This document shows positions 25,977 through 64,000 of a DNA stretch of 64,000 bases, piece by piece (position 1 is the first letter of the stretch; each line of letters begins with the position of its first letter). The stretch covers positions 182,539-246,538 of the forward strand of contig CAZNEE010000003.1 in assembly GCA_964572255.1 (NCBI GenBank). Reading direction: 5' to 3'. Origin of the DNA: an uncultured Planctomycetia bacterium. Lineage in GTDB: Bacteria; Omnitrophota; Gorgyraeia; Tantalellales; Tantalellaceae. A program made the translations under genes and the position numbers. The notes under the pieces are model-generated. The model did not search any database, was not told the DNA's origin, and saw nothing but the letters and a program-made list of their open reading frames with translations.

Positions 25977-26078
25977 CCTCTTCTTAACAATAACTTCTTC
26001 TTTTAAAAAACCAAAATAAATGCAATTAGCTGTCTAGCTTTTTATTGCCTTAATTAGAAAAAAGTTCTATTATTTTTC

Positions 26079-26107
26079 TTGAACTAATGTGTTAAGAGGA
26101 TTAAAAT
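26079..26107 (+). promoter_or_regulatory. Candidate sigma70-like promoter for the HEAT-repeat gene.
   Basis: TTGAAC (26079-26084), a 17-nt spacer, then TAAAAT (26102-26107). It lies ~95 nt upstream of the ATG at 26201 in an AT-rich 224-bp intergenic region. Confidence 0.3.
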
Positions 26108-26200
26108 ATAGCTAGTTAAAGAACAAAAAGTGTTCTCTCATATAAAATATCAATATATTTAATATTGTTCATTATTAATATAAAAACGAAAGAGAGTAAT

Positions 26201-30829: not shown

Positions 30830-30854
30830 GAAATTATCCCTGGGTGGGAATGAC

Positions 30855-30887
30855 ATAAAAAACCAGGCTGCTCAAAAGAGCAGCCTG
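30855..30887 (-). terminator. Rho-independent terminator for giant gene D. It may also act in the other direction.
   Basis: A perfect 11-bp GC-rich stem, CCAGGCTGCTC (30862-30872) / GAGCAGCCTGG (30877-30887), with a 4-nt loop AAAA. On the minus strand the stem is followed by U6 (complement of the A-run 30855-30860). It lies 133 nt downstream of the gene D stop (31020) and 26 nt downstream of the 26201..30829 stop. Confidence 0.55.
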
Positions 30888-30895
30888 GTCCGTAT

Positions 30896-30974
30896 CGGAA
30901 GCCGGTAGGTGTAAGTGGCTTCCTTTCGCTAGTATTGCATCCCCCGGATGCGGAGGGGGATAACCTCCGCATCC
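30896..30974 (+). terminator. Two additional stem-loops in the convergent intergenic region. A weak terminator candidate for the plus-strand gene.
   Basis: GGAAGCC (30896-30902) / GGCTTCC (30917-30923) with a 13-nt loop, followed by TTTCGCT. GGATGCGGAGG (30946-30956) / CCTCCGCATCC (30964-30974) is an 11-bp stem with a 7-nt loop and no U-tract. Confidence 0.3.
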
Positions 30975-31019
30975 AAGGCTGGAAGCTGGTAGGTGTCTAG
31001 CAACTTCCATAAAATTCTG

Positions 31020-34000
31020 TTAAAGAGCAATAGCTGTCTTTGTAATCGAGTTAATAAACTCCATTATATTTTTCATAATATCAATGGCGCTTATCGGCAT
31101 TAAATTGAACTTACCTCCAAGCATGCTTCTGATAAGATCCATATCCTTACACGCCAGCGCAAGGCCGGCCGGCTTTTCATTTACCCTGTCCTTGGTGGCC
31201 ATCCTTACCATGACGCTCATGATAGGCATCGCCGCCAAGAGAGCATTCTTACCCTTCAGGTTTTCATCTTCTGTATTCGCTATCAGCATATTAAAGAGCT
31301 CTGATGCTTTTGTCACCTTATTACTATGGTCACGGATCGCTTCCAGGTCTTCTGTATTCTCAGCAACGGCTATTGCCACGTAAGCCGCATCTGAATCGAA
31401 TCTGAGATCAGGCCGCACTTTCATCTCTTCGATACACTCGTTAACTGCCCCAACTATAGTCGACCCTTCTTCAAACTCGACTATTTCGACCTCACTTACC
31501 GGGATCTCCGCCTCGGTAATGATCCTTTCAACCTCGCCTGTCATGCCTTTATCAACCACTATGACAGGTCTTATAAACTCTATTCCATGCGCCTGTTTGG
31601 CAATATGTCTTATCATATCCTCATTGAACAAACGATCGCCCCTGGCATCAAACGCAGGAACTACTGTCTTCTCGAACAGCCCTGCTTTGTTAAAGAGTTC
31701 TGCAAGCGAAATTATGAGTTCCACCGGACTCTTCGCTTCGGTCATTTTGCGCCTGAATTCTTCTATGTCGATCTTTCCGTCCTCGATGGCTTCAGTGATC
31801 TCAGGCCTGGTCAATGCCATGGCCATTCCGTCAATAAATTCACGCGGCAGGCCTGTATCGGACATGATCTCAGGTATAAGCGTCCCCAAAGCAGCCGGTG
31901 AGACAAATCCCGGCACTTCAACAGGAGCTTCTTCAACGGCCTTTTTGATCACCGCAGGTATATGTTTCTCAAGTTCGGCTTTCTTGGCCGCTATACGTGC
32001 CGCACGATCTGCTACATCTTTTGATACTCCCGTGATCTGCATGACCCTGCTTGCGACCGCACCATCTCTGACGATCGCATCTATCTTAAACCTCAACTGG
32101 TTGATCTGTGCGGAACTGAGAGTATCCACAGAACCGGATAAGAATATTTCAAGCGCGCTGCTCAGGCCAAATCCGGCTTCACTATACCTTGCGCTCTCAA
32201 CAGCTATCATCGCCAGCACATCAAGGTCGGAACCATCCATCTCTCTTATAAGCGATAATTCTCTTGCGTCAAAATCCCCTCTGGCCTCATCGGGTATAAA
32301 CAGCTGCAGTTCGCCGCTTTCCGTCTTACGTACTTTTACAAGATCCAGATTAAACAGCTCCTGTTCGATATTAAATTTACTTGTCGGAACCTTGCCGGTC
32401 TGATACGCTACAGCAGCATCTACTGCTCTGTCACCCGACAGTTCGATCTCGACATCTTCAACCTCAAGAAGTTTTTCAAGGTTTGTTCTTACAGCATTGG
32501 GCATCTTATCTAGATCAACGGAAACTAACCTAGCACGGTCTTCTCTGAACCTTACAGCCCCACTTAACTGTTTACCTTTCTCCAATGCGGTACCCAGGAA
32601 CTGCTGAGCAAAGAATGCATGACCAACCGGCCTTACACCCGCCTTGATGCTTTCTGAAGCGATTTGTACGCCCTTTAAAAGAACCGGTACAGCTACCGCA
32701 GTTCCTAATGCAATAAGAGCGACTAATGCAACATTTAATCCTGCAGCCAATGCTGTTAAGCTTAACACAGAAACCGCGCTAAATGTCATGAGTCCTCCGA
32801 TCTGAGCAAATCCTGCCTCAGCCGACGGAACCTCAGCCGCTACAGCTGGCGAAACTTTAGCTGCTACAGCTAGTGCTTTGGTTAATTTCTCTATTGTGTC
32901 ATCTATCTTTGTCATTTGCTGTCTGATACTGCCAATTTCCTTCGTGATGTTGCCCTGTAAATCCTTAAGATCCTGCTTGGCTTTCTCTGATAGCCCACTT
33001 AACTCTTTTACTAATTCATCTAGATTACTTTGCATTTTTTCGATTTTTGGCTTTTCAGTTGCGAGAAAAGCTTTTAATTCTTCAAGCTTATCCATCTGAT
33101 CTTTTGGTACTGCCATGTTATCTCTGGCGTAGCGCTCCATTATGCCCTGCAGTTGATTAAATTCTCCTACCTTAAGGTTATAAGATCGTATCTCTTGATC
33201 AAGCATGATTTCATCGACTTGTATATTGCTTCTCAATTCTTTTTCCGCTGCTCTGGCTTCGTCTATTAACGCGCTCCGTTGATCGCTAAGCTGGTTCTCC
33301 AGCCCTTGGATCTTGTTCTTTAGTTCTTGACGTTCCCCTTCCAATAAGCGGATTCTGTTCTCCAGCTGCTGGACCTCTTTTGTCTTCGGAGCCTTTGCCT
33401 CAGCTAATTCAATGCGTTCGTAAAGATTTACCGCCTGATCCATTTGTCTGCCAAGCGTTCCGCTCCTCATGCCAAGTACTACTTCTGCATCCTGCAAAGC
33501 TCTCAGCTTATCCGACATAAGAACATCTCTGCTTAACCAATCTGCTATCTTTCCTTCTTCGGAATATTCAGATTCTAATTTCCTGATCGCGGAAATGGTT
33601 CTCTCTATATCCATTCTTTCAGCTGCCTCTCCCATTCCTTCTGAAAGCCCTTTATACGCATCCGCAACTTTTTGGATTATTTCAAAATCCGTACCCACTA
33701 ATGAAGAGAGAATAATCTCAAGCTTGACATCATATTTACCGGCTATCCTCTTAGCCTGTCTCATAGTCTTGTTCTCGATCGACACAAACTCATTAATTGC
33801 TTCTCTTCTAGTGCGAATCTTTTGTCTCTCAGGATCAAGCTCGTTAACCTTATCAGTTAACTTATCTGCTAACTCAATATTTTCTTTTAATCTTGCTTCT
33901 TTAGCCGTTTCCTGATAATACCTCAAGAGAACATCCTTTAATGCCATCTCTTGGGCCTTCTCTGCGCCAACCTTATAGTTCATCGCAAACAGAATTGAAG

Positions 34001-37000: not shown

Positions 37001-40000
37001 ATCCTCTGATAGCAGCACCCATTCTCTGGAAGATGTTAAGCCCCTTGACTTTCTCTTTCTGACCAAATATATCAACTGCCTGCATTCCTTCAAATCTCTC
37101 CGCTCTTCTAATAGCTTCTTCTTCTGATTTTTCAGTTGCCGCTTTTGCAAGTTCCGCTATCTCCGCATCTATGCTGCTAAGCAGCTCTTGTGCTTCTACA
37201 TTGTCTCTCTGGATCTCCTGTGCCTGCAGGACAAACCCTCTTGCCAATTCCAGGTCTTGTGACCTCATCTCTTGAGCTTTTTGTAATAGATCTTTAACTT
37301 CGGCCATATTCTCTTCATGCTGCTTGATCTGATACTGCACAAACTGGTTAAGGTTAAGTTCATTTATTCCCTGGAGTTCTCTGCCTTCAATAACAAGCAC
37401 TTCATTGACAATATTCGCACTTGCCTGCTCAAAGAAACCCTGCGCCTCTTTTATCTTATCGGATGAACTATCAAGGCTCTCGTAGAACTGCCCTTTAGCA
37501 TCAGCGCTTATCTCTTCTATCATGCGCTGCGTGAAGTAGCCCGTTAATATTTTTCCGAGGGCGACCTTTATCTCGTCAACTGTATTTTTCCTTATAACAG
37601 ATTCTATATTAGAAAGCTTGAGCTCTATTCCAAAGGTATCCTTTATGTCCCGTAAAATGCTCTGGAAGCCTGCACTTGTTACCTCTTCGGACATATACTT
37701 ATCAACCATCTGGCTTACTCTATGATCTAAGTACTCAGGTGTCCCGAGATCATAGCTTATACCGCTTCTTGAATCTATAAGACTTATGAGCCTGTTAGCA
37801 AGCTCAAATATAATGGTCTCTTCCCTGGCCTGATGCCTTATGCTTCTTACCTGCATATTAACTATGTTCTTTTGCGCCTGGGTAAATGCGGTCTTAAGTA
37901 CGTTCTTATCAGCTTCTGAAAGTTTTTCTCCTCTTTCAAGCATTTCCTGCGCCTGTTTGAGCAGATCTCCTCCCTTCAGGAACCCTCTCTTGAGGAATTC
38001 CATTTGCGCCTCAAGACATATCAAGTTAGTTGTGATACCGATTACGCCCTGACGTCCTGACCTTCCTCTGACCTGATCATCAACTCTTACTGAATCATAA
38101 AATCCCATGCTGACCTGCTGGAGACCCCATTCTCTGGCAGCCTTGGAAACTTTAATATCCGTTCCTCTTCCGCTAATAGGTGTTGATATGGTTATCATCC
38201 CTCCTAAGCCGGCCCTATCAACAATTACATCTTCTTCGCTTTCGTTCGAGGCATCAAGCATCTGAAAATACGGAACGCCTTTCTTCTCGTCAGTTCCTCT
38301 CATCTCAGTTTCAATGAGTTCCAAAGATTCTTTCGGTGAAAGTTTTTGTCCGTCAATTTCTCTCTTCGCAGTCGCAAGTAACTGAGCAAAATTTTCTTTT
38401 TGAAGTATTCCTTTAACTCTTAGAGCATCATTCACGCCAAGTGTATGGATAACTAAAGGCTTGCCTTCCCTCACAGCGTCATGAACAAGTTGCAATAGAA
38501 AAGCTGTTCTTTCAGCTTCCGTTAAGAAGTATTGCTCAGGCATATCCTCTCTGCGCATAATACTGTGCCTTGCAACCTTAAATATATTCATTCCATACAG
38601 CTCTCTCATCATACCCATCTCTGCCATGCTGGAAGCAATAGTTCCTGTCATACCTGATACATCGCCAAAAAGTGATATAAGGTCTTTTGCGGTTATCCTT
38701 GAAGTGGTCCTGCTCTTGCTTCTTATGCTTAAATCTTCTTTTGCTTCTATAAGCTGATGTAACTCACCCTGCAGTCTCTGGCCTGTTTGCGTTCTTCCGG
38801 TATCTTTACCTATAAGAAGTATCTGGTTTTCACGTTTAACATAATCACGGCCTTCAACATATGTATGCTGGGCTTGCAGGGCCTGTCTTACATAGTTAGT
38901 CCATTCCTCTCTAGCTTCTTTGTCCCATTTTTCTTTTGCTTCTTGTAAAACCTGATCAAGAACATCTCTATCCAATTCCTGTTTAGAGTAATTTCTTAGA
39001 CTGTTAAGCCCGCTAACCACAGCCTTCTGAAGCTTTTTCCTGCCTGCTTCAGTGAAACCAACCTCCTTGGTAACTTCGTTATACCAAGCATCATATTCGC
39101 CTTCTCTGTCTATTGCCTCGACAATATCTCCTGTTCGTTTCACACTAGAAGCATCTATCTCTGTCTCTTTACCTGTAAGTCTCATTGCGAACATGTTAAG
39201 ACTTGCAACATTAAAGTTCTCAAGAACTGCCCTTGCAGCACCTCTTAATCTGATCTGGTCATACATGTTCAGCGGTCCCGTGCGTCCTGACATGATAAAC
39301 TGTGTCTTAGCCTGGTCTATCAATAAGCTATCGACTTCATCAAGACAAGCGGACATTTTCTTAAGATGGTCGTAGTATCCCTCGCCCTGGAATATATATC
39401 GTTCACTTCTTCTTATGTCAGGCGTGTCTCTATCATGAAGAACATCAAATGCCCAAGTATCTATTGCTACATACGTAACATCTTTAGCATAGGCGGCTCT
39501 TCTTGCCTGATCCCTTTCTGCCTGAGTTGCTCCTTCCATATCGCGCTGCACAAGACCGACCTCTAAACCAAGTAAGTCCTGCAGAATAGGTACTGCTTCT
39601 TTTTCATAAGCCACTCTGGCGTAATAATCAGCCTGAACCGCAACTAATGATCCTGTACCTTCTATACCCTTTAGATATGCCCTTAAGACACCGACTATAG
39701 TTTTACCTTCACCTGTAGCAAGTTCCGCGATCCATCTTGAATTTCTTCTTGAGACTACAAGTGCCGCTTTTATTTGTTCGACATGCGGCGTGTATCCATT
39801 TTGTGCTAGTATAGCCATTGATGCGACAGCCAGCATTTCTCGCTTCATCCCGCGAGTAATGCGATCACGCTTACTCTTAAATTCTTTCGTTTTTTCCTTA
39901 CCTACTTCTTCGACTATTTCTTTTAACTTATCTTGAAGATTTGTGCCTACACTCACAGCTAGTAAAAGCTTTACTTCTTCGCTTGCCAAAGCCCTGATAT

Positions 40001-43000: not shown

Positions 43001-46000
43001 TGTCCAGAGTTATAAAATTAAATTCTCCTGTATTTCTCATGATGTTTGCCCCGGCTATTGTCAGTACCTCGTTTACATGTTCTCTAGACATATCACTGTT
43101 AACCAGAGCAAGAGCAAAGCCGGTTACTGTATTATCAATGCCCATCTCATCAAAGGTGTCGGCTATCTGTTGTGCCTCTTCTTTAGTTGAAGCCTGGCCT
43201 ATATGGCTTATTACAGCACCGCCAATTGCTTGACTTAACTGGACTCTTAGATCTTTAGCTGCGCTTGCTCCCAGCCGGCTAAGAAGTGCCTGACCCGCCT
43301 GAGATAGTACGCTTCCCATCTTTGACTTTTCCATATCCTTCAGAATACTTGTATCTGCATCCGTAAGGCCTAAGTCTTTGAGCATGGCCGCATCACCCAA
43401 TGATCCGCTCATCATCCTTGCGGCAAGATCGATCGTTCCAAATGTTGATGAGAAGTTTCCTTCTGAGATGACACCGTTTAGAGTAAGATATGATATAACA
43501 TCCAAGAGTTTCTGAGATTTACTGTCTTCCCCAATATCAGCTTCCGCCATCCTGCCGATCGCTTCAAAATCTTTGTTAGCTACTGCCGCGAGAATCGCTT
43601 TGTTCTGATTAGCAAAACCCTGTATCTGTGTTGCAGCTTCCAATAACCCTGCCTCTGAAAGCTGTTCCCTAACGTTTGCATCAGTAAGATCGCTCTTTGC
43701 AAGGTCATTTGTTAAGTCATTTAATTTTTCTTGAGTAACAAGCCCTGATTGTGCATCATGGATTATCCGTGGTGCATTTTCTCCGAAAGCCTGAATAAGC
43801 GCTTCTCTCTGCTGGGTGTTAGATAGATCAATATTGTCCACCGCGACTCCAAGAGCGCCTCTTACTAAGTCTCTCTTTATCGCGCTTAAGTTCACCCCGC
43901 CGTCAACATCGAAAAATTCGACCAAGATCTCGCGCAAATTTTCATCCGGTACCCAGAAAAGAAGTACATTGGCCAGTATCGGTTCTTTGATCGCCTCTTC
44001 CCAGAAACCGGATTTAGTCATTGCATCTCCTATTCCTTTACCGAATTTTCTGATCCATCCGCCGACTGTTTTACCAAAACTCAAGGTCCAGCTATAAACT
44101 CCGGTTGTTATGCTGCCGGTAAGAGCTGTAAGTCCTATTGATCTGCCAATCGCACCTAACAATTGGCCTGTATAAGCAGGAACTATTCCGAGGAAATTAA
44201 ACACGCCCATAAATATCATGTGGCCGGTAAATCTCTGTGCGGAAGTAAATATCTCTACTATTCCTGCAACACCTTCGCGCTGTTTCATGCTGTAGATCAT
44301 CATACCGATATCACGGCCTATGGTCCTTATAATGTTCCTGCTCTTTGTAATGCTCCACAAGGCTATAGTATCCGCACTTGCACCGCTAATTGGAAGTACT
44401 GTCGCAAAAGCATGCAAAGTAAACTGCAATGTAAAGGTAAGTCTTAAAAATTCACCCGCCATATGGGCCGGATGGAAACCCTTCATTGAGTGCATCAGAA
44501 CAGCTTTAAAACCTTTTACTGTTACTTGTTTCCCAAGTGCATCTGTGTAGCTTATCTTAAGCACAAAATCCCACCTGGAAGCTATGGCTTTAGCAGCCAT
44601 GGTTATGCCTCTTGCTATAACTCTTGTAAGCGCCCTGACAGGCCAGGTAACTACCTTCAAAATAGCCTGTCCCACGGTCCCCATAGCCTGCCACATAATC
44701 TGAACTCCGCTCCACCAGGCTTGTGCAAGAGGAACGATCGCATACTTCCAAGTTACAGTTGTTATTGCTTTGATAGCTGTTACCCACATTGCAATTTGTA
44801 TTTTCGCGCCTGTCCACATTAACTTCGCTATAAAGTTTATTCCGGTATATTTTCCAACCGCCATTAGAAACTTACCGACCGCTACAGCTGTATTAACTAC
44901 CGCTGTTCTAATAGCATAAAATGCACCTTGCTGGATCAGGTATTTTGCGGCCCATCTTTCAGCGGCTACTACGCCTATATTCTGCAAGACCCTGCCAATA
45001 CCTGAAGTGCCGGCTATAAAGACGATATCGGCCAGTAAACTTAATGCTCCTTTTATAATAGTATGTTTTTCAAAGAACACATTTAATTCTTCATAGGTTC
45101 TTGCCTCGGCAAAATATTGAACTGTTGCAACGGCAAGAGTAAATGCCGCGGCTGCGACTAATGTAAAAGCTGCCGCTGAAGACGAGATGATAGTACCTGC
45201 GCCGACTGAAAGGGTCATACCTAATATTGTTGCTGTAGCTGTTGCTGCTGATGTTGCCGCTGATGCCGCTACAGCTGCAGCAACTGCAATATAAGCGCCG
45301 ACAACTGCAAGAATAGCTACTACAACAACTGCTGCCTTGCCCAAGAAACCAGAATTCCAAGTATCACTTACAAACATCACGGTAGAATTAATTCCAACAT
45401 TATTCATATAGAACTTAAATGCTTCAGCGCCTGCATCGGTATGTTCAAGTATGCTGCTGCCATTGACCATATCGTAATGACTTGTTCTTGAAACATCGGC
45501 ATTAGCCGCGCCAAATATTGCGGTATTCCAGAATGTGTCGTGATAATCACCATGAAATAGTACAGTGTTGCGTCCGGTAACCATAGTTGATCCATGAGCG
45601 GCGCCAAGAGCATACACATTGCCTTTTTCTTCATTAAAATGCATATAAGCCCTTGCTACTCTGCCTGAGAGAGATTCCTGGCCGAATACCATGAGATGCG
45701 CAACATCTAAAAGATCGCCTTCAACATTATATTTTGCCATCATGCTGACTTCATAATCGTTCCAGATTATGTCATCCTCGAACATCGTTTCGACTCTTAT
45801 AAATGCTACTTCGCCCATGTTGCTCTGCGTATCAACAGCGCCTTCCTTGGCAGAAACTACAGCATTCATATTTCCTTCATTCATTCCGGTCGGAGTATAA
45901 AGAGTAAGGTTTACGACCGTATCATCCGCAAGATAACAATTTTCACCTATAGTACCTTGAGCTTCCAGCTTGTCCGTAAGCCGGTTGATTATGCTGTCGA

Positions 46001-49000: not shown

Positions 49001-52000
49001 CTGTCTTAAAGTTAAAGAAACTATCCATGCCGGCCATCATTACCGCTGCGCTAATTGCGCTCATCTCTTCGCCCGTTGCTGTCTTAATAGCGGAAGCGAA
49101 AGTTTCAGTATTATCTTTAGTCATCACATTAAGCCTTGCTACCGTTGACTGGAACTTATCGCCATTAAATGACAATACCTCCTTGCCCTCTACCGTCTTG
49201 GAAATAAAGAAGCTGTCCATACCGGCCATCATTACCGCTGCGCTAATTGCGCTCATCTCTTCGCCTGTTGCTTTGTTGATGGCGGCTGCGAATGCTTTAG
49301 TGTTATCCGCTGAAAGCATATTAAGTTTTGCTACTGTGGCTTTAAAGCTTGTTCCGTCAAATGAGTCTAATACTTTTTTGCCTTCTACTGTCTTAAAACT
49401 GAAGAATTTATCTATACCTGACATCATAATTGCTGCACTTACTGTGTCTATCTTATCGCCTGTTGCCGTCTTGATGGCAGAAGCAAATGCTTTGGTATCA
49501 TCTCCAGTCAACATGTTAAGTCTTGCTACTGTGTCCTTGAAGCTTGTTCCGTCAAATGATGTTATTTCTTGATTGAAGAATTTTTTCATACCGGAGATTA
49601 TGATAGCTGCCTGCACAGCGCCGACTTCCTTGCCTGTAGCTTTGCCTAATGCACCTTTAAATGAGGCGACATCATCTTTAGTAAGTAAATTGAGGGCTTT
49701 TACGGTAGAGGTAAATGTATCTGCGTCAAAAGAAGAAAGGTCCTCGCTGAACAATTTACTCATGCTTGCCATAATAAGAGCGGCGTTAATCAGGTTCATT
49801 TCCTTGCCGGTTGCATGCTGCATAGCGTCTTTAAACGAGGTAACATTATCTTCAGTCAAAAGACCGAGTGCCTTGATGGTAGAATCAAATGCTTCAGAAT
49901 TAAATGACTCAAGACGCTTGCTAACCGCACCTGTTCTTTCATCTTTCACTTCTTTAAAATTGAAGAACTGTTCCATCCCAGCTAGCATGTCTGCCGCGGC
50001 AGTCTTATCTATTTCGATGCCGGTAGCTTCTGTTAAAACTTTCGCAAATGCTGAAACTGTCTTTTCATCAAGCATATTAAGTGCTCCGACAACTTTTTGG
50101 TTATCAAAGGACGCTACAACCTTCTTGCCATCAACTTCCTTGAAAGTGAAGAATTTATCCATACCCTGGAGCATAACTACAGCATTTAATGCAGGTAGGA
50201 GATCTCCTGTAGCGTTACTCATGGCGCCTGCATAGTTTGCGACATCATCTCGAGAAACCATACCGAACCTTGCAAGATCGAATAATAATGCCCTGCGTTC
50301 CTTGCTCATGCCGGCTATAATATTTATGACATTACCTATTTGCTGAGGACCGAATTTAGCACCGGTTGTTCTTTCAAAATGGCTGATCACCATGCTGAGC
50401 TTTTTAGCGCCTTCTTCTGTGGCCATTTCTTTAAACGCTTCTATTCTTGAAGCAAAGGCTCCCTTTATCAGGTTTCCATCGGCATCAAACTGATCTTTTG
50501 ACCTTACCATTGCCATCATCACATCGCCCAGCCTGATCTCGCCAAGACCTTGAGATTTACGTACTGCATTAAGCGCACCGGCGAAACTTTCCGAGATAGC
50601 TCTTCCCGCACCTGTGGCAAGACTTTCTAATCTATTAAAATCGAATGTCAAATTGCCGGAACTGAAGAAAGTAAAAGTAAATTCGGTATTAAACATCTTG
50701 CCGACAACTATTACATCTTTGACTGAGATGCCTTGTTCGGCCGCGGCGCTCAGGGCGGAAGATTTTAGGGAAGCTTCATCAGGATAAGTCCCGCCGGATA
50801 TGATAAGGGTCTTTTCGCCGGTGATCATGTCAGCTCTTATCGTGAATGTCTCTCCGGTGACCCTTACTTCTTGTGTTATCTTGGTAAGAACTATCTGCGG
50901 TTTGGCAAAAGGTTCTATTGCCACTGCGCCTTGTCCGAATGACTGCAGTGCATCCGTCCTGAACATGCCTACCTGAGCTACGGGGGCTATGCTTGCCATT
51001 TCTGTCCGGCCGACGGAAGTGATCCTTACATCTTCTTCGGCCTTCCCGCCTTCTACCATCTCGACTTTCATGATCTCTGAGCCCTTAGCAAAGAACATGA
51101 TCGTCTCCAGGCCGCCTCTTGCCAATTCCTGCATCGCACCTGCTACTGTTTCTCTTGCGGCAGCTGCAATGATAGGCTCAAATCTCGCAACAACCGGAAT
51201 AAAGATTAATTCTGCCATGAGAGCTTCTGCTCTTTGCGCGATTGTCTCTTTAACATTAGCTCCTCTGAGCCCGCCTATCACCTCTGCAACCTTGGCCATT
51301 TCTGTTTGCGGAATAATATCTATAGGCATGATGTCCAGGATCCTGCCGTCAGCGAGTTTCAGTGCCAATGCCTGGATACCGGTTATCGTCTGTCCTTCCA
51401 CTTTGGAGAATAACAAGACATTATCTACCCATCCTTTTATGCCGGTCCTTAATTCTTTAGCTATAAGGCTTGCCAACGCCATGAATTCCGCAAGAGAAGT
51501 TGCTTTCACTTCGGTAAGTGCAAGGAACTGGGCGACTTTGGCTTCCGCTTGTTCAATATCAAGCATGAACTCGCCTTCCTTAGCCTTCATGAGCTCGATC
51601 TTTGTATCAAGCTCTATTTCGGTGCTTACTCTTCCCAAAAGACCGAAACTTTCAAGCTGGCCTTCTCTATATTCGGAGGCGAATACTGAGTCAGAAGCTG
51701 TGAACTGTATGCCTGTTATGCCTGTACCGGCCGCAACTGCTTCAAATTCTTTGGATATATCAAGAAGTAGCTCTAATCCTGTGCGTTCCTGGATGTCAAC
51801 ATCAGCAAGGCTTATTGTTATACCGGCACCGATCCTTCCCAGCGCCTCAAAAGCTTCCTGGGTGAACGGTATACCGACCGAGCCGCCTTCACCCGCCAAC
51901 CTTATAACATCCCCGGAAACTGTCCTTATGCCTTGTATTACTTTCTCGTCGCTGGCTAATGTTTGCGTGATAACCCCGGCTCCGGTTTCAGCTGAAATTA

Positions 52001-55000
52001 CGTTAGGATCAGCCGCCTTCCGGGCAATGTCTATTTCCACGCCTGCCACGGTCAGCCTGCCTGCTTGCACCCCGGCAGCTCCGAAAACAAGCCCGATCAC
52101 TGCATCGAACACATCCTCAGGCCTTACCCCCGCCAGAATGCCCGCAGTTGTCTCAATGCCTATCTTTCTAAGCTGTTCTTCTGATAAGCCGGTCAACCCG
52201 CCGATATCGATAGTCCCGGCTTCAACATCAACGAACTTTGAAATGTCCATTCTGGTGAGAGCCATTATGGCTTTTGTGGCGGCTCTTTCATCTTCTTTTC
52301 CGGCAACGGATATTGAGACAGTTTTAAGGTCTTCTCCGAGCTTGACTTGAGTGGTATATCTTACGCTTTGAAGCTGTCCGTCTACATAAACCTCGGTCCT
52401 GACTACCTGGACTTTCTTGGTCTCGATCTTCCCCGAACTTGGGTCTCTTACCTGCACCGACCTTTCCGCGAGAACCATATCCCTTCTTTGTACAACCCGT
52501 TTCCTGCCTGTCTCGGGATCTTCGACTATCTCCGTTCCCGGCGGGAGCTTATCTTCAGCCCTTTCGACTACCACCTGAGGCAGCAAGACAACCCTGCCCG
52601 AGATAACCGCTGTTGTGAATACCGTGACTTTCGGCTCCTTGCCTACCTGCTGTCCTGTCGGGTCAAAATCAAACCTCTTCTGTATCCATACCTCGCCGCG
52701 TTTTTCCCATTTGATCATAGTGTAGCCAATGAACCTGCCCTCGAGATCGTAGCTGAAAGTAAAATCTATAAGATCTTTGCCTCCGGTAACGGTAAACTGG
52801 TACCCGACAACCTTATCTTCATCATCTTCACTGGTCACACCAGTAACCATTACTATGCGCCTGCGGTCTTCGAAGATCTGGCCGATCGTTATCTCTTTTT
52901 CCTGCTCCTTTCCCGTATCGTCTTTTTCCTTATATGTCAACTTTTTGTCCTTACCCTCTATCTTCAGGATAAGTTCTATGGCGAGATCGCTTATCTCGAT
53001 CGTCATCTTATCGATCATCGCGGCCGCCTCATCAAGCGTTTTAACTCCGAAAACCTGTGTTAAATATTTCTCATCTGCCCCAAGTCCGGTCCTTATAATT
53101 TCACGGGGATTACTCTGCGCCCTTTTCCATTCATCAGCAATGGTCATTAAACTATCCCGGATAGTATCAAACCTTTCTTCCCTGTCACGGAAATATACCC
53201 ACGCTGCAGCGCCGGCAGTCGCATCATAATCAACAGAGTTAGCTACAGTAGAATAGTCTCCAACCAGCTCATTGCCCGCCAGGAGGGCTTTATTCAGAGC
53301 TACATCCACTGCATCTTCAATAACATCCCGCCCGGTTAACATATCCTTACCAAGCGCGATTTTGAGTATATCTGAAGCCGGGAACATTTTCTCGGCCAGA
53401 TCGTCCTCCTCAACAGCATTAAAATCATCAAGCAGATTAAACACGCCGTCATTGATTATATCGTTGTATTGATTAATGAGGTCCGTCTTTTTCTGATCGA
53501 GTTTCGCTTTATTTAAGTTATAAAGTGCGTCTTCCGCCAGAGAAAGTGCGGCACATTTACTGTCTATCGCCTTTTTCATCTCTTCCCAATTCTCTCTGGC
53601 TGTCCTGCGCTGATCAGCGATCTCATCAAGGGATTCGTCGGTTCGCCGTTTGCTTTCCTTAAACGAATCCATCATCCGTTCGATGGCTCTGTCATGTGCT
53701 GCACCCAGACCCTGTGAGTGGTCTTTTATAACCGTCTCCACCGGTTGAAGCGTGTTTGGATCGGTAAGATACTTGGCTGAAAGGATCAGATCAATAAAAT
53801 CCTTAATATATTTATCTAAAATCTGTCTGCTGGCGGCATCAAAACCGGTATTAAAGCTTTCAACATCCTTTTCGATCAAATCTACTATAGCGCTGTCAAG
53901 CTGGTAAGTCGGATCTACCTGCTTCATTACCTCTTCAAGCGACCTATAACACTGCTTTGCCATAGATTGAAGCTGTGTGATATACCCGCGCTTGATGTTA
54001 GCTTCGGCCCTGTTAAGCTCCCGCCTTGTCTTGTAATATGCTTCATCATTTTCGGCATGTAAATCAGCTTTCCAGGCATTTATGCGGGCTTTTCTTGCGT
54101 CTCTTACAGCCATAAGGTCATCGTTTATATTGTTATACGTCTCATTGATCAAAGCTTCTTTTAATTCAACATTGTAGAAATCCTTGATGTTATCAAACCT
54201 GGCTTCATCCGCTTCCTCAAGCTTTTCTGCAACAAGTTGATCCAGCCAAATTTTCCTAATAAGAAATTCATCGCTAAGATCCACCGAGATCAGATCGGTG
54301 CCTGTATCCGCTCCCTCTATCAATTCAATCGTAGTATACGAACCCAAAATATACGGATCCAGCTCAATAATGCCCACTTCAGTGGTATAGTCCCCGACCG
54401 TGAAGTTGCCCTCTTTATCAACCAAATAATCTGCATCCCCATTACCGGTTAGATCAAATCCGTAGGGATTATATATATAGGAAGACCTGTAATAAACCGG
54501 ATCGGATTCGTCTTCAGGAGCGATATACTTACCTACATGATGCCATGATTCTTCAAGAGCTTGCCAGTAGAACCATTGACGTGCGGTCGGATAATGATGC
54601 ACGAGGCGCTTATCATTAATAGTTGTATAGTCTCCTGTAGGCATGCCAGCCGATGTATAATCCCCGTTTCTTTCCGTGGGCAATTTACCGTAGCTTTCTT
54701 CCTGGAGATCGGATCCAAATCCCCATGAAGTCGAGTATTCATTACTAATAGCGGCTCTGGCAGAATTATTAAGCTGAAAACCAAGGCCATAATAACGCCA
54801 GTATTTTTCCATAAGAGTTTTTATCTCGTTGTTCCGGCTTGTTCCACTTGACCATTTCACGTGCTCATTATCAGCTATGCCTCCTCCATTAGCATTTGTA
54901 GTATATGAACCTGCCACCGCAGGAGTTGCGCCCTCTCCTGCCGGAAATGGTGCGGCTTGTAATGCCGCGTCAACCATAAGGTCTGAAAGTTTCCAGAGAT

Positions 55001-58000
55001 CAGCCATGATGCCCTTGGTTTCATCATCCCGGACATCGGGATTATACTGGTTGCCCTCACCGCTTATAGCATGGAAATCGAACACAACACCCAGATCATC
55101 ATGTCCCAATTCATATAATATCCCGCCCATCGGGTCCAGTATACTTAGATATCCCCCGCCCTGACCCTTTATGTCATTGCGCTTGAAACAGCTATCAGCA
55201 AGATCATCCGCCCCCTTCAGCAGACCAAGCACGGTTGTATCATCACCTGTTGCGCTGATAGCGAGTCTTTCATCCAAGATCGCTGCTACAGTTGAATAGG
55301 CTCCCGTTAAATACCCATTATTGCCAAGCCTATTTTCTCTTTCCTGATTTGTAAACCCTGCACTGAAATTGCTGTTCGGGGAACCGTCACTCGCCGCCTG
55401 TGCGGCACTATCGATCTCATCGAGCATATCGCTTTGGATGGCACGTTCTTCAGCCAAACTGTCTTTTGTTTCGCGCAGCCATTTTCTGGCATCTAAGTAT
55501 GACCACGTCAGGTTGGTTTTGGCGGCCGCTATCTTTTCCCTCGCTTCTCTTTCTATATCAGCAGCCTCCTTAAGCTTATCTGCCGCGCCTATTACTATTT
55601 CTTCATATTTTTCGGTAATAACATCGAAGTTCTCCGTTAGATCAAGTTTAGCTTTAACAGTTTTACTTGTACCGTCGCGGGCTGTAATTTCAACTCCCTC
55701 AAAACCCTGATAAAGCTTCTTAAAATCTGTACTGCTTAAGGGGTTCTTCTTATATCTTGGATCGTCAGGTCCGCCGGAACCGCTATCCTCGTCGCCTTCA
55801 CCGCTAAGACCCAAGCCGTCCCCAAACGTCGCATTCCACCACTCTTGCATATTAACCCAGGCTATCCATGTCTGTGTATCTACAACACCTGTGGGTGGCG
55901 CGCAACTGCCCGTCGCTATTCCTCCTATTGGTTGTTCATAAGGTCCGGTGCTAATGCCTATAAATCCTCCCCATTCGCAATAAACGTTCCACAATGCACC
56001 TATATCAAAGTCAGCATCAGGAAGTTGTCCCCATAGATTTGCAAGCATATCAAGAAGCGACTGGGGCTGATCTTTCTCCCTATCTTCAATAAAGAGAAAA
56101 TCGGGTTTTGCTGAACCATCACCATATTTTCTGCCATCGTTAAATGTTTCACCATTAAGATACTCGCCCAATTCATAAGCTTTATCAAGGAATCCAAGCA
56201 TTTCTTCGCGTTTCTCATGCATTGTATCCAGGATCTCTTCAAAAGCGTCATACACCATGTCCCTCGCTTCGGTGAGAAGACGCTCTACTTCAGTCTGCAT
56301 TGTCACGACAGCGGTCTTAAGAATATCGATCTCACTGTTCATGTTCTCTAAGGCCCCTTTAGCATTTTCAAGTGACGTCCTGATATTATTAAGAGATTCC
56401 TGGTAAGCGCTTAATTGCTGTGAATCGGGAACTGTCAACCAGCCGGCATTAAGCATCTCTTCTATTTCATTTACGCTTAACTGCACTTTATCTGAATATA
56501 TCCCTTGTACACGGGATGTATATTCACCGGTTACCTGCAACAATTCATTTATCTTCTCCGTAAATGCGGTGGTATATTCACCTTGCTTTTGGGCGATCTC
56601 GCTCCCGTCTCCCGTATCAAGCATTTCAGTGATATTAGACCTTAGACCATAACCGTCTTCCCATGGTGTCCTGAAATCATGTATATCTAACCCTTTTAAT
56701 TCCCCGTCAGCATGCCAAAGTTCTTTTAAACATTTATCAAAAAACTTCTCACCCTCTCCAAGCGTGTAGTTGTATACATCAAGCGCCCCGGCTTCATCTG
56801 AATTTGTGTACAGGTTCTTCCATATCGGAACCAACTCGTCCAGATAATCCTGGAGATTACCCTTCTGATCGTTCCAGTAATCCTCCACCTCAATCCTGAT
56901 ATTGCCGTAAGCTCCTGCCAGATCGTCGCTGTATAAACTTAAATAGCCGTCTTCTGCAGGGTTGACGAGCCTGTCCCGGATCACCGTGTCATATTCAGCG
57001 AGGGCTTCAAGATACTCGCTCATCGAAGCGGGCACTGTATAAGAAACGCCTCCCGTGCTTGAAGAGCCGGAGTCTCCCGCGCGCAAAGTAGCATAGGTTC
57101 TTTCGAGCACGCTTTCATTTATCGGGATAGGTATCATGCTGCCGTCCGGACCTATTTGAAATAGATCTATATTGGTCTTTCTTCTTGTGCCGGTCTCTGA
57201 ATTAGAGGAATCCGTACCATAGTCAAACCTTGGCCACCATAACCTTTCAAGAGGATACCCCTGATAAGAAGAGCCGTACTCTATGATCAAGCCCGGTTCG
57301 TTGATCCCTCCGTCATCGCCTCTCGTGAAGTAAGTGATCTCCCATCCGCCTCCGGCAAGATTTTTTACCTGTTTACGCCATGTGCGGTTATCTCTAGGCG
57401 GCTGTATATTCAGCTCGCCGAGGAACTGTCCGTATTTATTGTTAAGTTCATTTTCCTTAGGCCCGTAATATTGAAGTGATGTTAATGTCCCTTTCCAGTC
57501 GTAACTTTCAATTGACATGCTTACGCCAAATGGCTCATAAAGATCGACGCCTGCCATGGTGTAATTGTAAAGATCTTCAGGGAAAGGTATCGAGCCGTAC
57601 CAGTATCCATCATGAGAAGAAACGCCCTGGCCGCTTGTAATACCAAAGAAACCGCCGCTTGAGGTGCTGCCACCGGCAAAACTTGACCTGCCTGCGCCTT
57701 TGATCTCTTTTGCTTTTTCGTCTTCAACTTCTTCTCTTTCCGGTATATTCGTAAATGTAACAACATAACCGGACCATTCTCTCATGAAACTGTTCTTAGA
57801 AACCGTCAGCTCCTGGCCATCCTCGATTATCGTGAGTATGTCGTCTGCATCTATATCTGTAACCGTAAGATAATGGTTCGATCCTATATACGCAAGAACC
57901 GTCGCACCGCTCTGAATAAGCGCTTTAAGAGCACCGAACCCGTGTCTTCTGCTGTTATAAGCGGAGTATTCATACACATCAGGCGTGCCGTCTTCGTCAA

Positions 58001-61000
58001 AATCAATAGCAATAAGATCATTGATATCCTGCGGGCTGAGGTCGGAAGAGATAAGCACCTCCATCATATCGGGTATACTGTCAGAATCTTTATCATCGAA
58101 ACCGGCGGCATCAAGATCGGCATAGATCGCATATTCATAAACATCCGGCACAAGGTCAAGATCAACATCCTGAGCGAACAGACTGTTAACATCCGTGATC
58201 GTTATAAGGTCTCCCGCAAGAAGAATCTCAAGCTCATCAGGTATGTCATCTGTATCAGTATCAAGCGGTACTTCAAGATCATAGGCATAAGCTTGCTGAC
58301 CGGTCTGGTCAAACGCGGTCTGTTTAAGTCCGAGAAGTGATAACTCAAGCTCGTCCCCCTCACTCGGAGCATCAGGTATAACTTCAAAGATAATATCGTT
58401 TATTATCGCCTGCGCGGCCATTGCCGCAAAATCCGTAACAGCAGCAACAGGATCGATGAATGCTTTAAGTGCCGTAAAAGCGCTCATGCCGAAATGTTCA
58501 GATTGTCCGTTGAGCCAATCGAGTATGTTGCTGATAGCTTCCTGTGTCTTGCCGCTTACGTTCTCAAGCCAATCTGAAACAAAATTAATCACGTTCTCTC
58601 TTACAAACTCATCGATCACGCTGATCCCGGAGAATATTATGCTTGCCGATCCGGCGATTTCTTCGCCTTCAGAAATATTCGCCTCAAAGTGAACGGCATC
58701 TTCCCCGGTTATCCTATCGGCCAGATCATCCAGAGTCATTGGCGTTGAGTCTATATCGGTTAACATGGTGGTCCCGTCGATACCTATCTCAAAACCTCCG
58801 ACTATTACGAATGAATCGAGAGAGGAAAGATCAAAGTCCACCAGATCCGGCTCAGCCATATCAACTTCTTTAACGATCAGCTCTTCAGCTATCCAGCCCG
58901 TCTGATCCTTTTCTACTTCAGCTTCAACAAAAATGTTATCCTTCTTTTCTTTTACTTCCAGCTTTATCGCTGTACCGTTATCATCAGTGACTTTCACGTA
59001 AGTGGAGAGTCCGTTTCTTTCATTGGTATTAAATATATCAACAAGTTCCCACCATGCTATACTTTCACCGAACGAATCCAGTATCTCAACAGCTTCAGGA
59101 TATACAGCGAATTCGACTATATCTTCAACGGTATCAAGATCCGTATCTTCCATTAAACTCGACATAGTATCAAGATCTCCAAAAAGCAAAAATTCCAGTA
59201 TGTCATAAACGCCGTCTGTGTCCGTATCACCGATAATCCATTCATCGCTGTCAATATCAATAAGGTTGCCGTATATGATATATTCGATTATGTCCGCCAC
59301 ACCATCCGCATCAGAGTCATGCAGTATGGTATCTCCCGGGTTCATTACACCGAGATCACCGTAAAGCGCAAGTTCAAGACTGTCATAAATATCGTCCGCA
59401 TCTGTGTCTGTATAACCAGAGGCGTCTCTGTAAAGGCTGTCGGCAAGTACATAGCCCACGCCGTTTACAGTTATCGTCCTTGCTATATAATCTACGCCGT
59501 TTACCAGGTAGTCAGGGTTATCCTTTATAAGATCGAAAAGGTCCTGAACAGTAAGAGGCGTTCCTTCTTCGGAGAACATAACAGTTTCACCGGTTATACT
59601 AACAGTCTTCTCGCCTACATCGATGGTGCTTGCGGCCGTGTTCACATCGTTCAGTTTTCCGTTTATAACAGTGGATAAGACAGTTGGGATCTTTATCTTC
59701 TCAGCCTGCCACGGGTTTTCCTCCGACTGCGTTACCCATGCATATGTGTCAATTCCGAAAAATGAGTTGCTATCATAGATCCTTTCAAGGTCCTCCCAGT
59801 TGAAATGCGCACCGGATATATCCTCTACATAAAAATCCGGAGCCGGTGAAAGCGTAAAATCAACTCCGCCAAGAGTGAACATATCACCGGAAGCATCAAG
59901 ATTATCCAGCACACCGCTGATCATTGGAACATCAATAGCTGAAATAGCTTCAAGAATGTTGTCGTACATATCCGTTATAAGATCTATTCTCTTTATAAGC
60001 CACTCGCCTTCTTCCCACACAAGGTTTGCTTGTACATAAATAGCTGCCGACATGTCTCCGGTGATCAAATTGACCAGATCGTCAAGGCCCTGTAAATCTA
60101 TAGGCTCTCCCCTGTCATCATAAAACGCATAATTTTCGGCAAGCTCATACGGAGTACCGCCTAATGTGACGGTGGTATCCGTACCTATATCCACCGATTC
60201 GATCAGCTCCGTGATATCGCGCGTGTAATCAATCGGTTTGGTGCGAACATGTAACTCAAAGGCCCGCATTGTTCCGTCCGGACGATATGAAGATCCAACA
60301 TCCACGAAAGTATCTATATTCTCTAAAGCGTTATCCTGCATTATCTGGTCCAATTGATCTAGACTTATGGAATTGCCGTTAAAATCTGTGATCTTTGTAA
60401 GCGGTGTTATATCAAAAACCAGGCCCTTTATGTCGATTGTCCCATCAACCGGATCCAGACTGTTTATCACAATGCTGTTAATCTTGCCCGTGGCATCCGT
60501 TGAACCGGAAAGATCCGTGAGAAGATCCACCCTGGTGACATAAAATACATCGTTTACCCTGCTGGTTTCCACCCTTAGATACATGCTTCCGGCTATTAGA
60601 TCATACAAATATTTAAACTCGCCAAAGGAAATGCTGCTTCCATCAATATCGTAAAAATGAGTTCTTTCATCTATCTCATAGGTATTATTATCATAAATAA
60701 TTTCCCCTTTATTCTCATCGGACTGATTTACATTAACCGACAAGCTGCTAGCCAATATATGATCGAATGTAAAGCCAAGTTCAGCGGTAAAAGTTCTTAC
60801 TAGTTGAATTTCAGCCGCTTCCCATTCATTGCTGCTTACTTCGAAGATCTTTAGGGTAACAACATCCTGAAGACCTTCTTCAGCGCTTGATCTCAATCTT
60901 TCCATCAAGTTATCTAAACTAGTAACATCTCCGGTAATTAAGGTGCTGCCGGTGATCCTTACCCGGGTCGTACCGTTGATTTCTATAAGCTCATAATCAG

Positions 61001-64000: not shown

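Follow-up and report, generated by a model that had tools for sequence, protein, structure and literature searches.

The locus analyzed in this study raises the question of where one of its genes begins. The window, a stretch of DNA of 64,000 nt, contains on its minus strand the reading frame of gene D, which the ORF listing gave as 31020..63842 with a GTG start and a product of 10,940 aa. A first-pass annotation had proposed that the gene is larger than this, as its frame is open up to the right edge of the window. Indeed, gene D runs without interruption along the minus strand for at least 15,989 codons (about 48 kb) as a single gene, of which the window contains the C-terminal ~69%. Very probably it is a gene cut by the window whose product is a giant membrane protein with a SecA domain, of the kind described for Omnitrophota. 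The 10,940-aa version with its GTG start is an edge effect of the window cut, for which the ORF listing gave a false start, and any gene length read from such a window is a minimum.

The reading frame at the window edge

Translated from base 63998, from which all residue numbers of gene D in the window are counted, the frame consists of 10,992 sense codons and a single terminal stop codon at 31020-31022 (in-window part: 31020..63998, minus strand). A terminator-like hairpin (30860..30891, minus strand; 14-bp stem with eight G-C pairs and a T-run) sits 129 nt past this stop codon in the convergent intergenic region. The 52 codons 5′ of the GTG at 63842 are open as far as 63998, and the GTG is, as the first-pass annotation had stated for both points, picked merely as the first start-like codon (ATG, GTG or TTG) in the frame; the next ones are TTG 63611 and GTG 63515. 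The probability of such a stop-free stretch arising by chance had been put at about 0.08, a value which equals (61/64)^52 but is higher than all estimates from composition or from the sequence itself: 0.036 from the base composition of the gene D strand, 0.015-0.026 empirically from the two non-coding frames of this strand, and 0.006 under the AT-rich composition of the real intergenic regions of the window. Taken alone, the open frame of 52 codons is evidence of limited weight.

A start of gene D at GTG 63842, with upstream codons that are non-coding and stop-free by chance, could draw on these probabilities (0.006-0.08 depending on the model, and thus not negligible), on the GTG being the first start-like codon and on a weak terminator-like hairpin at 63883-63862 just 5′ of it (one found versus 0.7 expected). 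Against this stands the codon usage of the 52 edge codons, which resembles that of gene D: their log-odds score of 18.3 falls within the 21.1 ± 5.7 obtained for random in-frame stretches of 52 gene D codons, whereas intergenic DNA of the window ranges from −33 to +5.6. In addition, they encode the end of a recognisable domain, as described below. No Shine-Dalgarno motif was found before the GTG, and the GC content 5′ of it is 40%, as against 22-27% in the two AT-rich promoter-side intergenic regions. A product starting at the GTG would also be devoid of any signal or anchor sequence after this codon, with a maximum hydrophobicity of 0.67, compared with 1.44 for the N-terminal anchor of gene A and 2.0 for that of a 12,792-aa giant encoded at the related locus L008. 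Gene A, the second giant of the window (2..23524, minus strand), serves as an in-genome example of a real giant-gene N-terminus: its ATG at 23524 is accompanied by an SD-like AGGTG and a 364-nt upstream region with 27% GC, and its product begins with a basic stretch followed by a hydrophobic anchor. The edge codons of gene D exhibit none of these features. As contigs identical to the window moreover call the same gene at 15,982-15,989 aa, a start at GTG 63842 is hardly conceivable.

Continuation of gene D beyond the window

The exact sequences of the HEAT-repeat and TPR proteins encoded in the window were used as handles for a look-up of contigs in public assemblies. Four contigs (L004-L007) of 217,469, 216,889, 217,475 and 55,273 bp were found; in an order unrelated to these lengths, they are Ga0309772_1000030 (JGI 3300029258), Ga0310068_1000029 (JGI 3300029267), Ga0180431_10000530 (JGI 3300017987) and k141_541867 (ENA ERZ27256770). 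Their DNA is 100.000% identical, with 0 mismatches, to window positions 16201-40829 (24,629 nt) or 23698-40829 (17,132 nt). This base-for-base agreement spans at least two distinct assembly sources, one ENA k141 assembly and the JGI assemblies. The underlying samples appear to be hypersaline lake sediment. An NCBI contig of 261,370 bp also carries the HEAT-repeat protein.

In the four identical contigs the gene with the same stop codon (locus position 14820, corresponding to window position 31020) is called at 15,988, 15,989, 15,989 and 15,982 aa. It follows from these calls that the frame of gene D is open for at least 4,996 codons (~15 kb) past base 64000; this continuity is read from the lengths of the gene calls, with the base-level comparison covering 17-25 kb. 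It is thus nearly certain that the ORF extends past the window, and the real N-terminus lies outside of it, as the first-pass annotation had expected. By record-coordinate arithmetic, the 5′ end of the gene call lies 2 nt from the contig end in all four contigs, whose long gene D products are flagged as touching the contig end. All four contigs break within no more than 21 nt of each other, about 47.96 kb upstream of the stop codon. The true start of gene D therefore lies 15 kb or more past the right edge of the window and out of reach of even the longest contigs inspected, and the total length could be as much as about 30,000 aa.

A stop codon immediately beyond base 64000, the finding that had been named in advance as counting against a longer gene, does not occur according to the product lengths in the identical contigs. 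The same lengths leave practically no room for an arrangement in which the frame closes just past base 64000, the lectin-like domain described below belongs to another gene upstream and gene D exceeds 10,992 aa by only a little: one product of 15,982-15,989 aa with the same stop in four assemblies is impossible given a stop codon within these 15 kb.

A probable lectin-like domain at the edge and the N-terminal part

The edge codons had been described as encoding ordinary globular-looking sequence, and in addition to the codon usage a domain match bears this out. Residues 2-53 (63840..63995, minus strand) probably correspond to the C-terminal third of a DUF1080/3-keto-disaccharide-hydrolase (CBM66-like, ConA-type) β-sandwich. 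They match profile positions 130-186 of 187 of Pfam PF06439 (E = 0.0021; 18.6 bits, cut-off 26.8) and residues 117-167 of 172 of the levanase carbohydrate-binding module in PDB entry 4azz (E = 0.005), a CBM66, so that two separate searches place the 52 edge residues at the very end of the domain, over its last ~55 positions. The scores for PF06439 and CBM66 are below the family thresholds because just one third of the domain is present in the window. As the edge peptide is the C-terminal third, the remaining ~115-130 residues must lie beyond base 64000. GTG 63842 encodes a valine inside this lectin-like β-sandwich, in its last strand, and the window edge cuts through the domain. What lies at the edge is thus of the lectin-like type, distinct from the ~95-aa β modules found in gene D.

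About 14 of these divergent β-rich modules are arranged in tandem at aa 88-1516 (59451..63737, minus strand), as found by an iterated HMM on the protein itself and by alignment. They share the pattern G.L..V[DN]....[IL].[IL]GG..[IF]..., and an AlphaFold2 model (pLDDT 85.5) exhibits eight strands and one helix, with no fold match in the PDB (best E about 1). Two clusters of four EF-hand/dockerin-like Ca-binding loops (57963..59408, minus strand), in which the pattern D-x-[DN]-x-D-x-x-x-[DN]-x-x-[ED] is followed by a helix, start at aa 1531, 1561, 1591 and 1618 and at aa 1913, 1944, 1969 and 1999. These eight loops, detected by regular expression, compare with 0.08 expected from 200 shuffles. 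Pfam Dockerin_1 (PF00404) and TSP3 (PF18884) did not match at E ≤ 0.01, nor at E ≤ 10 for aa 1701-2100. A Peptidase_C39-like segment (PF03412) at aa 2027-2083 (57750..57920, minus strand) is sub-threshold (E = 0.003-0.004; 17.4-17.8 bits, cut-off 22) and covers the C-terminal half of the profile only.

Twelve tandem repeats of ~64 aa occupy aa 4573-5321 (48036..50282, minus strand), as revealed by self-BLAST, TRF and HMM tiling, with TRF reporting a 195/387-nt array at 48356-49559. Each repeat is predicted to form three helices and a β-hairpin that links it to the next repeat (AlphaFold2 pLDDT 90.4); this model has no match in the PDB, and Pfam yielded weak matches to Phage_int_SAM_1 (3.7e-8) and Imm48 (7.6e-7). 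The N-terminal part of gene D is strongly acidic (D+E 17.9%, K+R 5.0%) and the first 2,000 aa in window numbering contain only two cysteines. Within the window, a Kyte-Doolittle 19-residue scan gave no credible transmembrane (TM) segment N-terminal of aa 6222, and phmmer found no match for aa 1-8000 among the sequences of the PDB.

Membrane segments and the SecA-like motor

The TM map of gene D was drawn from the simple Kyte-Doolittle scan and not from DeepTMHMM. The first strongly hydrophobic TM block, with at least three helices, lies at aa 6222-6331 (45006..45335, minus strand; peaks of 2.79, 2.10 and 1.65), and a basic, hydrophobic composition persists past it to about aa 6700. It is followed by a helical region and then, at aa 8020-8663 (38010..39941, minus strand), by a SecA-like ATPase motor which was recognised by Pfam, BLASTP and NCBIfam and comprises NBD1, the preprotein cross-linking domain (PPXD) and NBD2. 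Pfam E-values are 1.7e-40 for SecA_DEAD (PF07517), 2.4e-13 for SecA_PP_bind (PF01043) and 5e-20 for P-loop_SecA (PF21090), and the motifs GEGKT, DEVD, MTGT, GRGTD and RGRSGRQG are intact. Downstream of the motor, the acidic TM-free part, the TM block and the helical region having preceded it, gene D continues with a conserved region of ~1,400 aa, which contains a TM segment at aa 9596-9614, and ends with the tail. A C-terminal pair of TM helices is located at aa 10403-10441 (32676..32792, minus strand; same scan), and the ~550 aa after it have no family match.

The motor is collinear with NBD1, PPXD and NBD2 of canonical SecA and shares with it Walker A, DEVD, TGT, GRGTD and the RGRxGRQG arginine-finger motif. 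However, canonical SecA is a free-standing protein of ~800-1,100 aa with the full NBD1-PPXD-NBD2-HSD-HWD arrangement, whereas the motor lies at residue ~8,020 (window numbering) inside a chain at least 16,000 aa long, in which no helical scaffold, wing or C-terminal linker could be detected. SecA_SW (scaffold/wing; PF07516) was absent from gene D even at E ≤ 10, and the SecA C-terminal domains were likewise not detected. In BLASTP, the motor is 28% identical to residues 28-562 of an 855-aa SecA and the alignment ends at residue 562. Against the NCBIfam SecA equivalogs it scores 245-257 bits, compared with cut-offs of 800-862.

Relatives of gene D

Sequence relatives of gene D are scarce. A search of 5.8 billion proteins returned no homologue of the first 800 aa, the first 500 aa have no related loci in genome, viral or metagenome contigs, and alignment-based scans of genome and metagenome contigs found no gene D relatives. 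The last 4 kb of the window likewise gave no megablast match to plasmids and phages. With the SecA region as query, matches were dominated by canonical SecA at 28-30% identity. Only aa 8082-10054 (33837..39755, minus strand) has detectable relatives: the post-SecA region retrieved a single one, P0121 (NCBI GCA_041643025.1), and a two-sequence profile searched against 1.84 billion cluster representatives yielded only P0121, the fragment P0127 and a TPR artefact.

P0121 is encoded at locus L008 (contig JBGGHK010000108.1) and is 44.8% identical to gene D aa 8082-10054; the ORF 5′ of it is 35.6% identical to aa 7498-8072. L008 keeps the order of gene D, with the helical region, the SecA-like motor and the conserved TM-containing region, while the C-terminal tails of both are unrelated and the N-terminal part in L008 is cut off by the contig end. 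Unlike in gene D, a TAA splits the frame just before the SecA-like domain, which leaves a 3,870-aa product, and a PilZ gene and the 12,792-aa giant follow on the same strand.

The TAA is of interest for a reading in which the ORF of gene D results from a chimeric assembly or belongs to a gene that is decaying or split, with an N-terminal surface protein and a TM- and SecA-like protein of ~3,000-4,000 aa as the real units. The break in the homologous frame exactly before the SecA-like domain fits such a division, assemblies of short reads are repeatedly broken within or close to the two giant genes, and the C39-like remnants suggest a possible post-translational cleavage. Nevertheless, at 0.062 stops per codon an uninterrupted frame of 48 kb has a chance probability of about zero, and four long contigs from at least two assembly sources agree base for base over 17-25 kb. 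Across the TAA the alignment of L008 to gene D continues collinearly with no change of frame (HA*QIKAAL in L008, HVEQIKAAL in gene D), so that a nonsense point mutation or a mistake in the MAG seems a better reading of the TAA than an ancestral gene boundary. A chimeric or split gene D is thus improbable. Given the position of the TAA, the SecA module may be viable as a polypeptide of its own, apart from the N-terminal part, and the split offers a natural test of the motor's need for tethering in cis.

Comparison with giant proteins of Omnitrophota

Giant membrane proteins bearing SecA_DEAD are known from Candidatus Omnitrophota (West-Roberts et al., 2023, bioRxiv 10.1101/2023.11.21.568195), and an architecture cluster with PF07517 was described among long Omnitrophota proteins (Nielsen and Lui, 2026, bioRxiv 10.64898/2026.06.07.730766). 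Gene D resembles the Omnitrophota SecA giants in its single ORF of over 10,000 aa, in a TM-free N-terminal portion that makes up most of the protein, in SecA_DEAD and preprotein-binding domains without scaffold/wing and in adjacent TM helices, as well as in 5′ truncation by assembly breaks and in having almost no sequence relatives. Judged from these predicted features, the gene D protein is very probably a giant membrane protein of the described SecA-domain-bearing Omnitrophota kind. Like the "Dockerin-type" class, it has EF-hand-type Ca repeats, together with candidates for a DUF1080-type domain, truncated by the window edge, and for a C39-like segment, both of which score below the family thresholds. 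Still, Pfam Dockerin_1, TSP3 and discoidin, which belong to that class, are undetected in gene D. As Dockerin_1 and TSP3 do not match, the label "Dockerin-type" formally does not apply. A downstream PilZ gene has been reported for most Omnitrophota giants; it follows the relative of gene D in L008 but not gene D in the window. T2SS/type IV pilus and PilZ genes are the neighbours to be expected of such giants. Those of gene D are a HEAT-repeat gene, a TPR/PMT_2 gene and a second giant, and no T2SS, pilus or PilZ gene lies beside it in the window, although with four genes visible this comparison is a weak one.

For such proteins, a SecA-like motor tethered in cis has been proposed to aid translocation of the giant or of its partners (West-Roberts et al., 2023). 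Applied to gene D, the N-terminal part would be exported and shown as a Ca-stabilised, carbohydrate-binding surface fibre held by the TM block, and the cytoplasmic motor, tethered in cis, would help to translocate the giant itself or partner proteins. We give this reading about an even chance. The other way to read an intact gene is that the N-terminal bulk stays in the cytoplasm and that the SecA-like domain serves some purpose other than export of the giant. Of the long Omnitrophota proteins, 46% are predicted to be TM-only with the bulk being cytoplasmic (Nielsen and Lui, 2026), and no signal peptide is seen in gene D, whose N-terminus lies outside the window; a cytoplasmic bulk is a serious though less probable option. 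The lectin-like CBM-type domain, the Ca loops, the acidity and the low cysteine content are, however, typical of extracellular fibres, and an anchor is present at the N-terminus of the complete giants in the vicinity.

It appears somewhat less probable still that gene D and gene A encode surface giants of a lineage other than the Omnitrophota described so far. The observations on which this reading draws are the near-orphan sequence of gene D, the possibly hypersaline source, and two confidently predicted repeat units without PDB match (the ~95-aa β module and the 64-aa unit). If it were true, the SecA-like motor could serve giants of different lineages as a portable device for self-export. 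With gene D as a giant of the Omnitrophota kind, the locus is a further, well-supported case of the SecA-bearing giant membrane proteins, of which few are known so far, and bears on their export, cleavage and function.

Neighbouring genes

No rRNA or tRNA marker is present in the window. The convergent neighbour of gene D encodes the HEAT-repeat protein (26201..30829, plus strand; 1,542 aa), and next to it lies the gene for the TPR protein (23913..25976, plus strand; 687 aa, or 671 aa from ATG 23961), whose N-terminal region is borderline for PMT_2 (GT-C glycosyltransferase). Gene A is missing from the ORF listing because ORFs that run off the source go unlisted, and it runs off the left edge. 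A phage-like character of the window, suggested by many small plus-strand ORFs in 1-23000, was dropped, as a 7,849-codon minus-strand frame was found there. In the contigs identical to the window gene A is 17,420 aa long; gene A and gene D are not paralogues, with no BLASTP match between them at 1e-3. The locus thereby holds two giants of 17,420 and at least 15,989 codons in a neighbourhood whose sequence is identical in several independent metagenome assemblies, and together their products amount to at least 33,400 aa, or 46% of the 217-kb contig.

Extent of gene D

The apparent length of 10,940 aa and the GTG start of gene D, the giant minus-strand gene ending at window position 31020, are an effect of where the window was cut. 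A mechanical ORF listing of the window gives the gene as 31020..63842 on the minus strand. The first-pass annotation had proposed that it is larger, with a frame open to the window edge and a true N-terminus outside the window. Indeed, GTG 63842 is nothing more than the earliest start-like codon in this frame, the 52 codons 5′ of it contain no stop, and translation from base 63998, from which residues are numbered here, yields 10,992 sense codons and one terminal stop. The chance of such an open stretch had been put at about 0.08, which does follow if three stops per 64 codons are presumed. The value falls, however, to 0.036 with the base composition of the minus strand, to 0.015–0.026 with its two non-coding frames and to 0.006 if base composition is taken from AT-rich intergenic DNA of the window. 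The open frame is real and, taken by itself, no more than suggestive.

Longer contigs were reached through an exact match of the 1,542-aa HEAT-repeat protein (26201..30829), also found on a 261,370-bp NCBI contig, and a 671-aa version of the TPR protein. Both are encoded on four public contigs: ENA ERZ27256770 (217,469 bp), JGI 3300029258 (216,889 bp), JGI 3300029267 (217,475 bp) and JGI 3300017987 (55,273 bp). As these are 100.000% identical to window 16201–40829 or 23698–40829 (0 mismatches, 0 gaps), they represent the same genome population as the window. Their gene D calls (15,988, 15,989, 15,989 and 15,982 aa, respectively) share the stop coinciding with window 31020, and the 5′ end of each lies, by the record coordinates, 2 nt from the contig end, with the products flagged as touching it. 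The frame thus runs at least 4,996 codons (~15 kb) past the window, continuity over this stretch being read from the called product lengths, and gene D is still 5′-truncated in all four contigs. Gene D is one ORF spanning 48 kb or more; its product, at least 15,989 aa, exceeds the 10,940-aa call by ~46%. A stop directly past base 64000, named beforehand as the finding that would speak against a larger gene, is excluded by these products. Both the observation of the open frame and its interpretation are hence borne out by the translation and the identical longer contigs.

The four contigs break within 21 nt of one another (window-equivalent ~78,968–78,989, ~47.96 kb upstream of the gene D stop), suggesting that short-read assembly is interrupted there by a repeat or by a region variable between strains. 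Three 12–13-kb contigs from other samples (JGI 3300018080, ENA ERZ27256796 and Logan SRR14699969) end at window 31204–31416, 60–131 codons into the 3′ end of gene D, and elsewhere match the window at 99.98–100% identity. It may be that strains differ in gene D. The project behind the JGI samples appears to concern hypersaline lake sediment; PMC7449369 confirms the PI name alone.

The edge codons and the missing start

The 52 edge codons are coding and part of a truncated domain. Codon usage was scored as log-odds of an in-frame model, trained on the remaining gene D, against the better of two shifted-frame models. The edge codons reach 18.3, compared with 21.1 ± 5.7 (5th percentile 11.4) for 52-codon windows drawn at random, in frame, from gene D and −33 to +5.6 for windows of three intergenic regions. 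Residues 2–53, DLEVYCKGNFIEVYINDELFIRAYDDFADAFSSGKIALGCWGSTATYFDEVEV, match positions 130–186 of 187 of PF06439 (3-keto-disaccharide hydrolase/DUF1080; E = 0.0021, 18.6 bits) and residues 117–167 of 172 of the levanase carbohydrate-binding module 4azz (E = 0.005). Both scores are under the family thresholds, as expected with just one third of the domain present. Both matches place the fragment at the extreme C-terminal end of a ConA-type beta-sandwich, with the GTG 63842 codon within its final strand, so that the earlier description of this peptide as ordinary globular-looking holds for fold as well as codon usage. Judged by these alignments, the predicted lectin-like domain must have another 115–130 residues or so encoded to the right of base 64000.

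An example of a giant-gene start is provided by gene A, a second minus-strand giant gene, whose frame is open from 23548 to base 2 (7,849 codons) and which is missing from the ORF listing because it runs off the left window edge. Gene calls in the long contigs place its start at ATG 23524, and the gene (17,420 aa) there lies wholly within the contig and reaches ~28.7 kb past that edge in the identical 217-kb contigs. AGGTG and a 364-nt region with 27% GC lie 5′ of the ATG, and the product begins with a basic stretch followed by a hydrophobic segment, IWLRTISFFVAFIFFIQQTGF. A 12,792-aa giant in L008, a locus that also holds a relative of gene D, has an N-terminus of the same type. Gene D read from GTG 63842, in contrast, has no Shine-Dalgarno-like motif in the 25 nt 5′ of the codon (GGCAACGTATTTTGATGAAGTTGAA), no AT-rich 5′ region and no basic stretch with hydrophobic segment. 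Over its first 150 aa, 19-residue hydropathy peaks at 0.67; gene A reaches 1.44 and the L008 giant 2.0.

Domain architecture and relatives

The gene D protein is largely non-repetitive and nearly Pfam-dark. The lectin-like fragment is followed by ~14 divergent beta-rich modules of ~95 aa (aa 88–1516; AF2 pLDDT 85.5, no PDB match), two clusters of four EF-hand/dockerin-like loops (aa 1531–1618 and 1913–1999; 8 observed, 0.08 expected) and a sub-threshold Pfam match to a C39-peptidase segment (aa 2027–2083). Twelve 64-aa repeats (aa 4573–5321, window 48036–50282, minus strand) are modeled by AF2 as three helices per unit with a beta-hairpin as linker (pLDDT 90.4), with no PDB match and weak Pfam matches to Phage_int_SAM_1 (3.7e-8) and Imm48 (7.6e-7). 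By hydropathy, the first strong TM block begins at aa 6222 and further TM helices lie at aa 9596–9614 and 10403–10441. Between them, Pfam, motifs, BLASTP and NCBIfam identify a SecA-like motor (aa 8020–8663; SecA_DEAD 1.7e-40, SecA_PP_bind and P-loop_SecA also matched). All ATPase motifs are retained, no scaffold/wing region was detected by Pfam and BLASTP, and the scores are far under the SecA equivalog cut-offs. Unusually long plus-strand ORFs lie antisense within gene D at window 48085–52350 (50989..52350, 453 aa; 48085..48963, 292 aa), most likely as by-products of sense-strand codon usage.

For the N-terminal 800 aa, no homologue was found in a 5.8-billion-protein index. The post-SecA region has one protein match, P0121 of L008 (3,870 aa; GCA_041643025.1, JBGGHK010000108.1), which is 44.8% identical across aa 8082–10054. 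An ORF upstream of P0121, cut by the contig end, aligns with aa 7498–8072, and one in-frame TAA in place of an E codon (L008:2280–2304; HA*QIKAAL versus HVEQIKAAL in gene D) divides the two directly before the SecA-like domain. This TAA could mark a pseudogene, stem from an error in sequencing or represent a natural version made as two polypeptides. On the same strand, P0121 is followed by a PilZ gene and by the 12,792-aa giant, which has a SecA-like domain of its own (24% identity). A two-sequence profile run against 1.84 billion cluster representatives retrieved P0121, the 1,552-aa fragment P0127 (E = 3.7e-183), one artefact and nothing else, so the family is very rare in public data.

Giant Omnitrophota proteins have been described with many TM regions, divergent SecA DEAD and preprotein-binding domains without scaffold/wing, and C39-like domains; their "Dockerin-type" class has an N-terminal majority without TM helices, EF-hand-based repeats and DUF1080 domains (West-Roberts et al., bioRxiv 10.1101/2023.11.21.568195). 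Among long proteins, a PF07517 architecture cluster, 80% singleton sequence clusters and long ORFs cut at contig boundaries in MAGs have likewise been reported (Nielsen & Lui, bioRxiv 10.64898/2026.06.07.730766). The architecture of gene D agrees with that of the giant Omnitrophota proteins, but Pfam gave no Dockerin or TSP3 match, which a formal assignment to the "Dockerin-type" class would require, and neither T2SS nor PilZ genes were seen next to it within the window. We therefore file it under SecA-bearing giant membrane proteins, not specifically as "Dockerin-type"; within this known kind, it stands out as a striking case.

Residues 1–2000 (window 57999–63998, minus strand) are extremely acidic (D+E 17.9%, K+R 5.0%), which would fit a halophilic extracellular protein, and the whole window part of the protein holds only 15 cysteines. 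The acidic, Ca-loop-bearing, lectin-containing N-terminal part might be exported and form a fibre on the cell surface, with the TM block as its anchor; on the cytoplasmic side, the SecA-like motor would help to translocate its own giant protein or partners, as proposed by West-Roberts et al.; we give this joint reading about an even chance. The main alternative, a TM-only topology with the bulk of the protein in the cytoplasm, appears less likely. Post-translational cleavage is compatible with either topology; the C39-like remnant and the interrupted frame of the L008 relative make it possible.

Gene A and the genes between the giants

Gene A yielded no Pfam family above threshold. A 216-nt (72-aa) unit is repeated in tandem ~26 times within it, at 64% identity (window 13326–18973, also 12267–13496), and three short contigs from other samples end inside this array (window 18429–18948). 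On the plus strand, the ORF listing has ~50 small entries in 1–23000, which are antisense artefacts over gene A. Together, genes A and D occupy 46% of the 217-kb contig.

A strong terminator-like minus-strand hairpin (window 30860–30891; 14-bp stem with 8 G-C pairs, then a T-run) is located in the 190-nt convergent spacer (52% GC) that separates gene D from the HEAT-repeat gene. The latter (26201–30829, plus strand) and a plus-strand gene with TPR repeats and a borderline PMT_2 (GT-C glycosyltransferase) region (23913–25976; 25.8 bits, cut-off 26.1) are placed between the two giant genes. The putative glycosyltransferase could act as a modifier of the predicted giant surface proteins that it adjoins.
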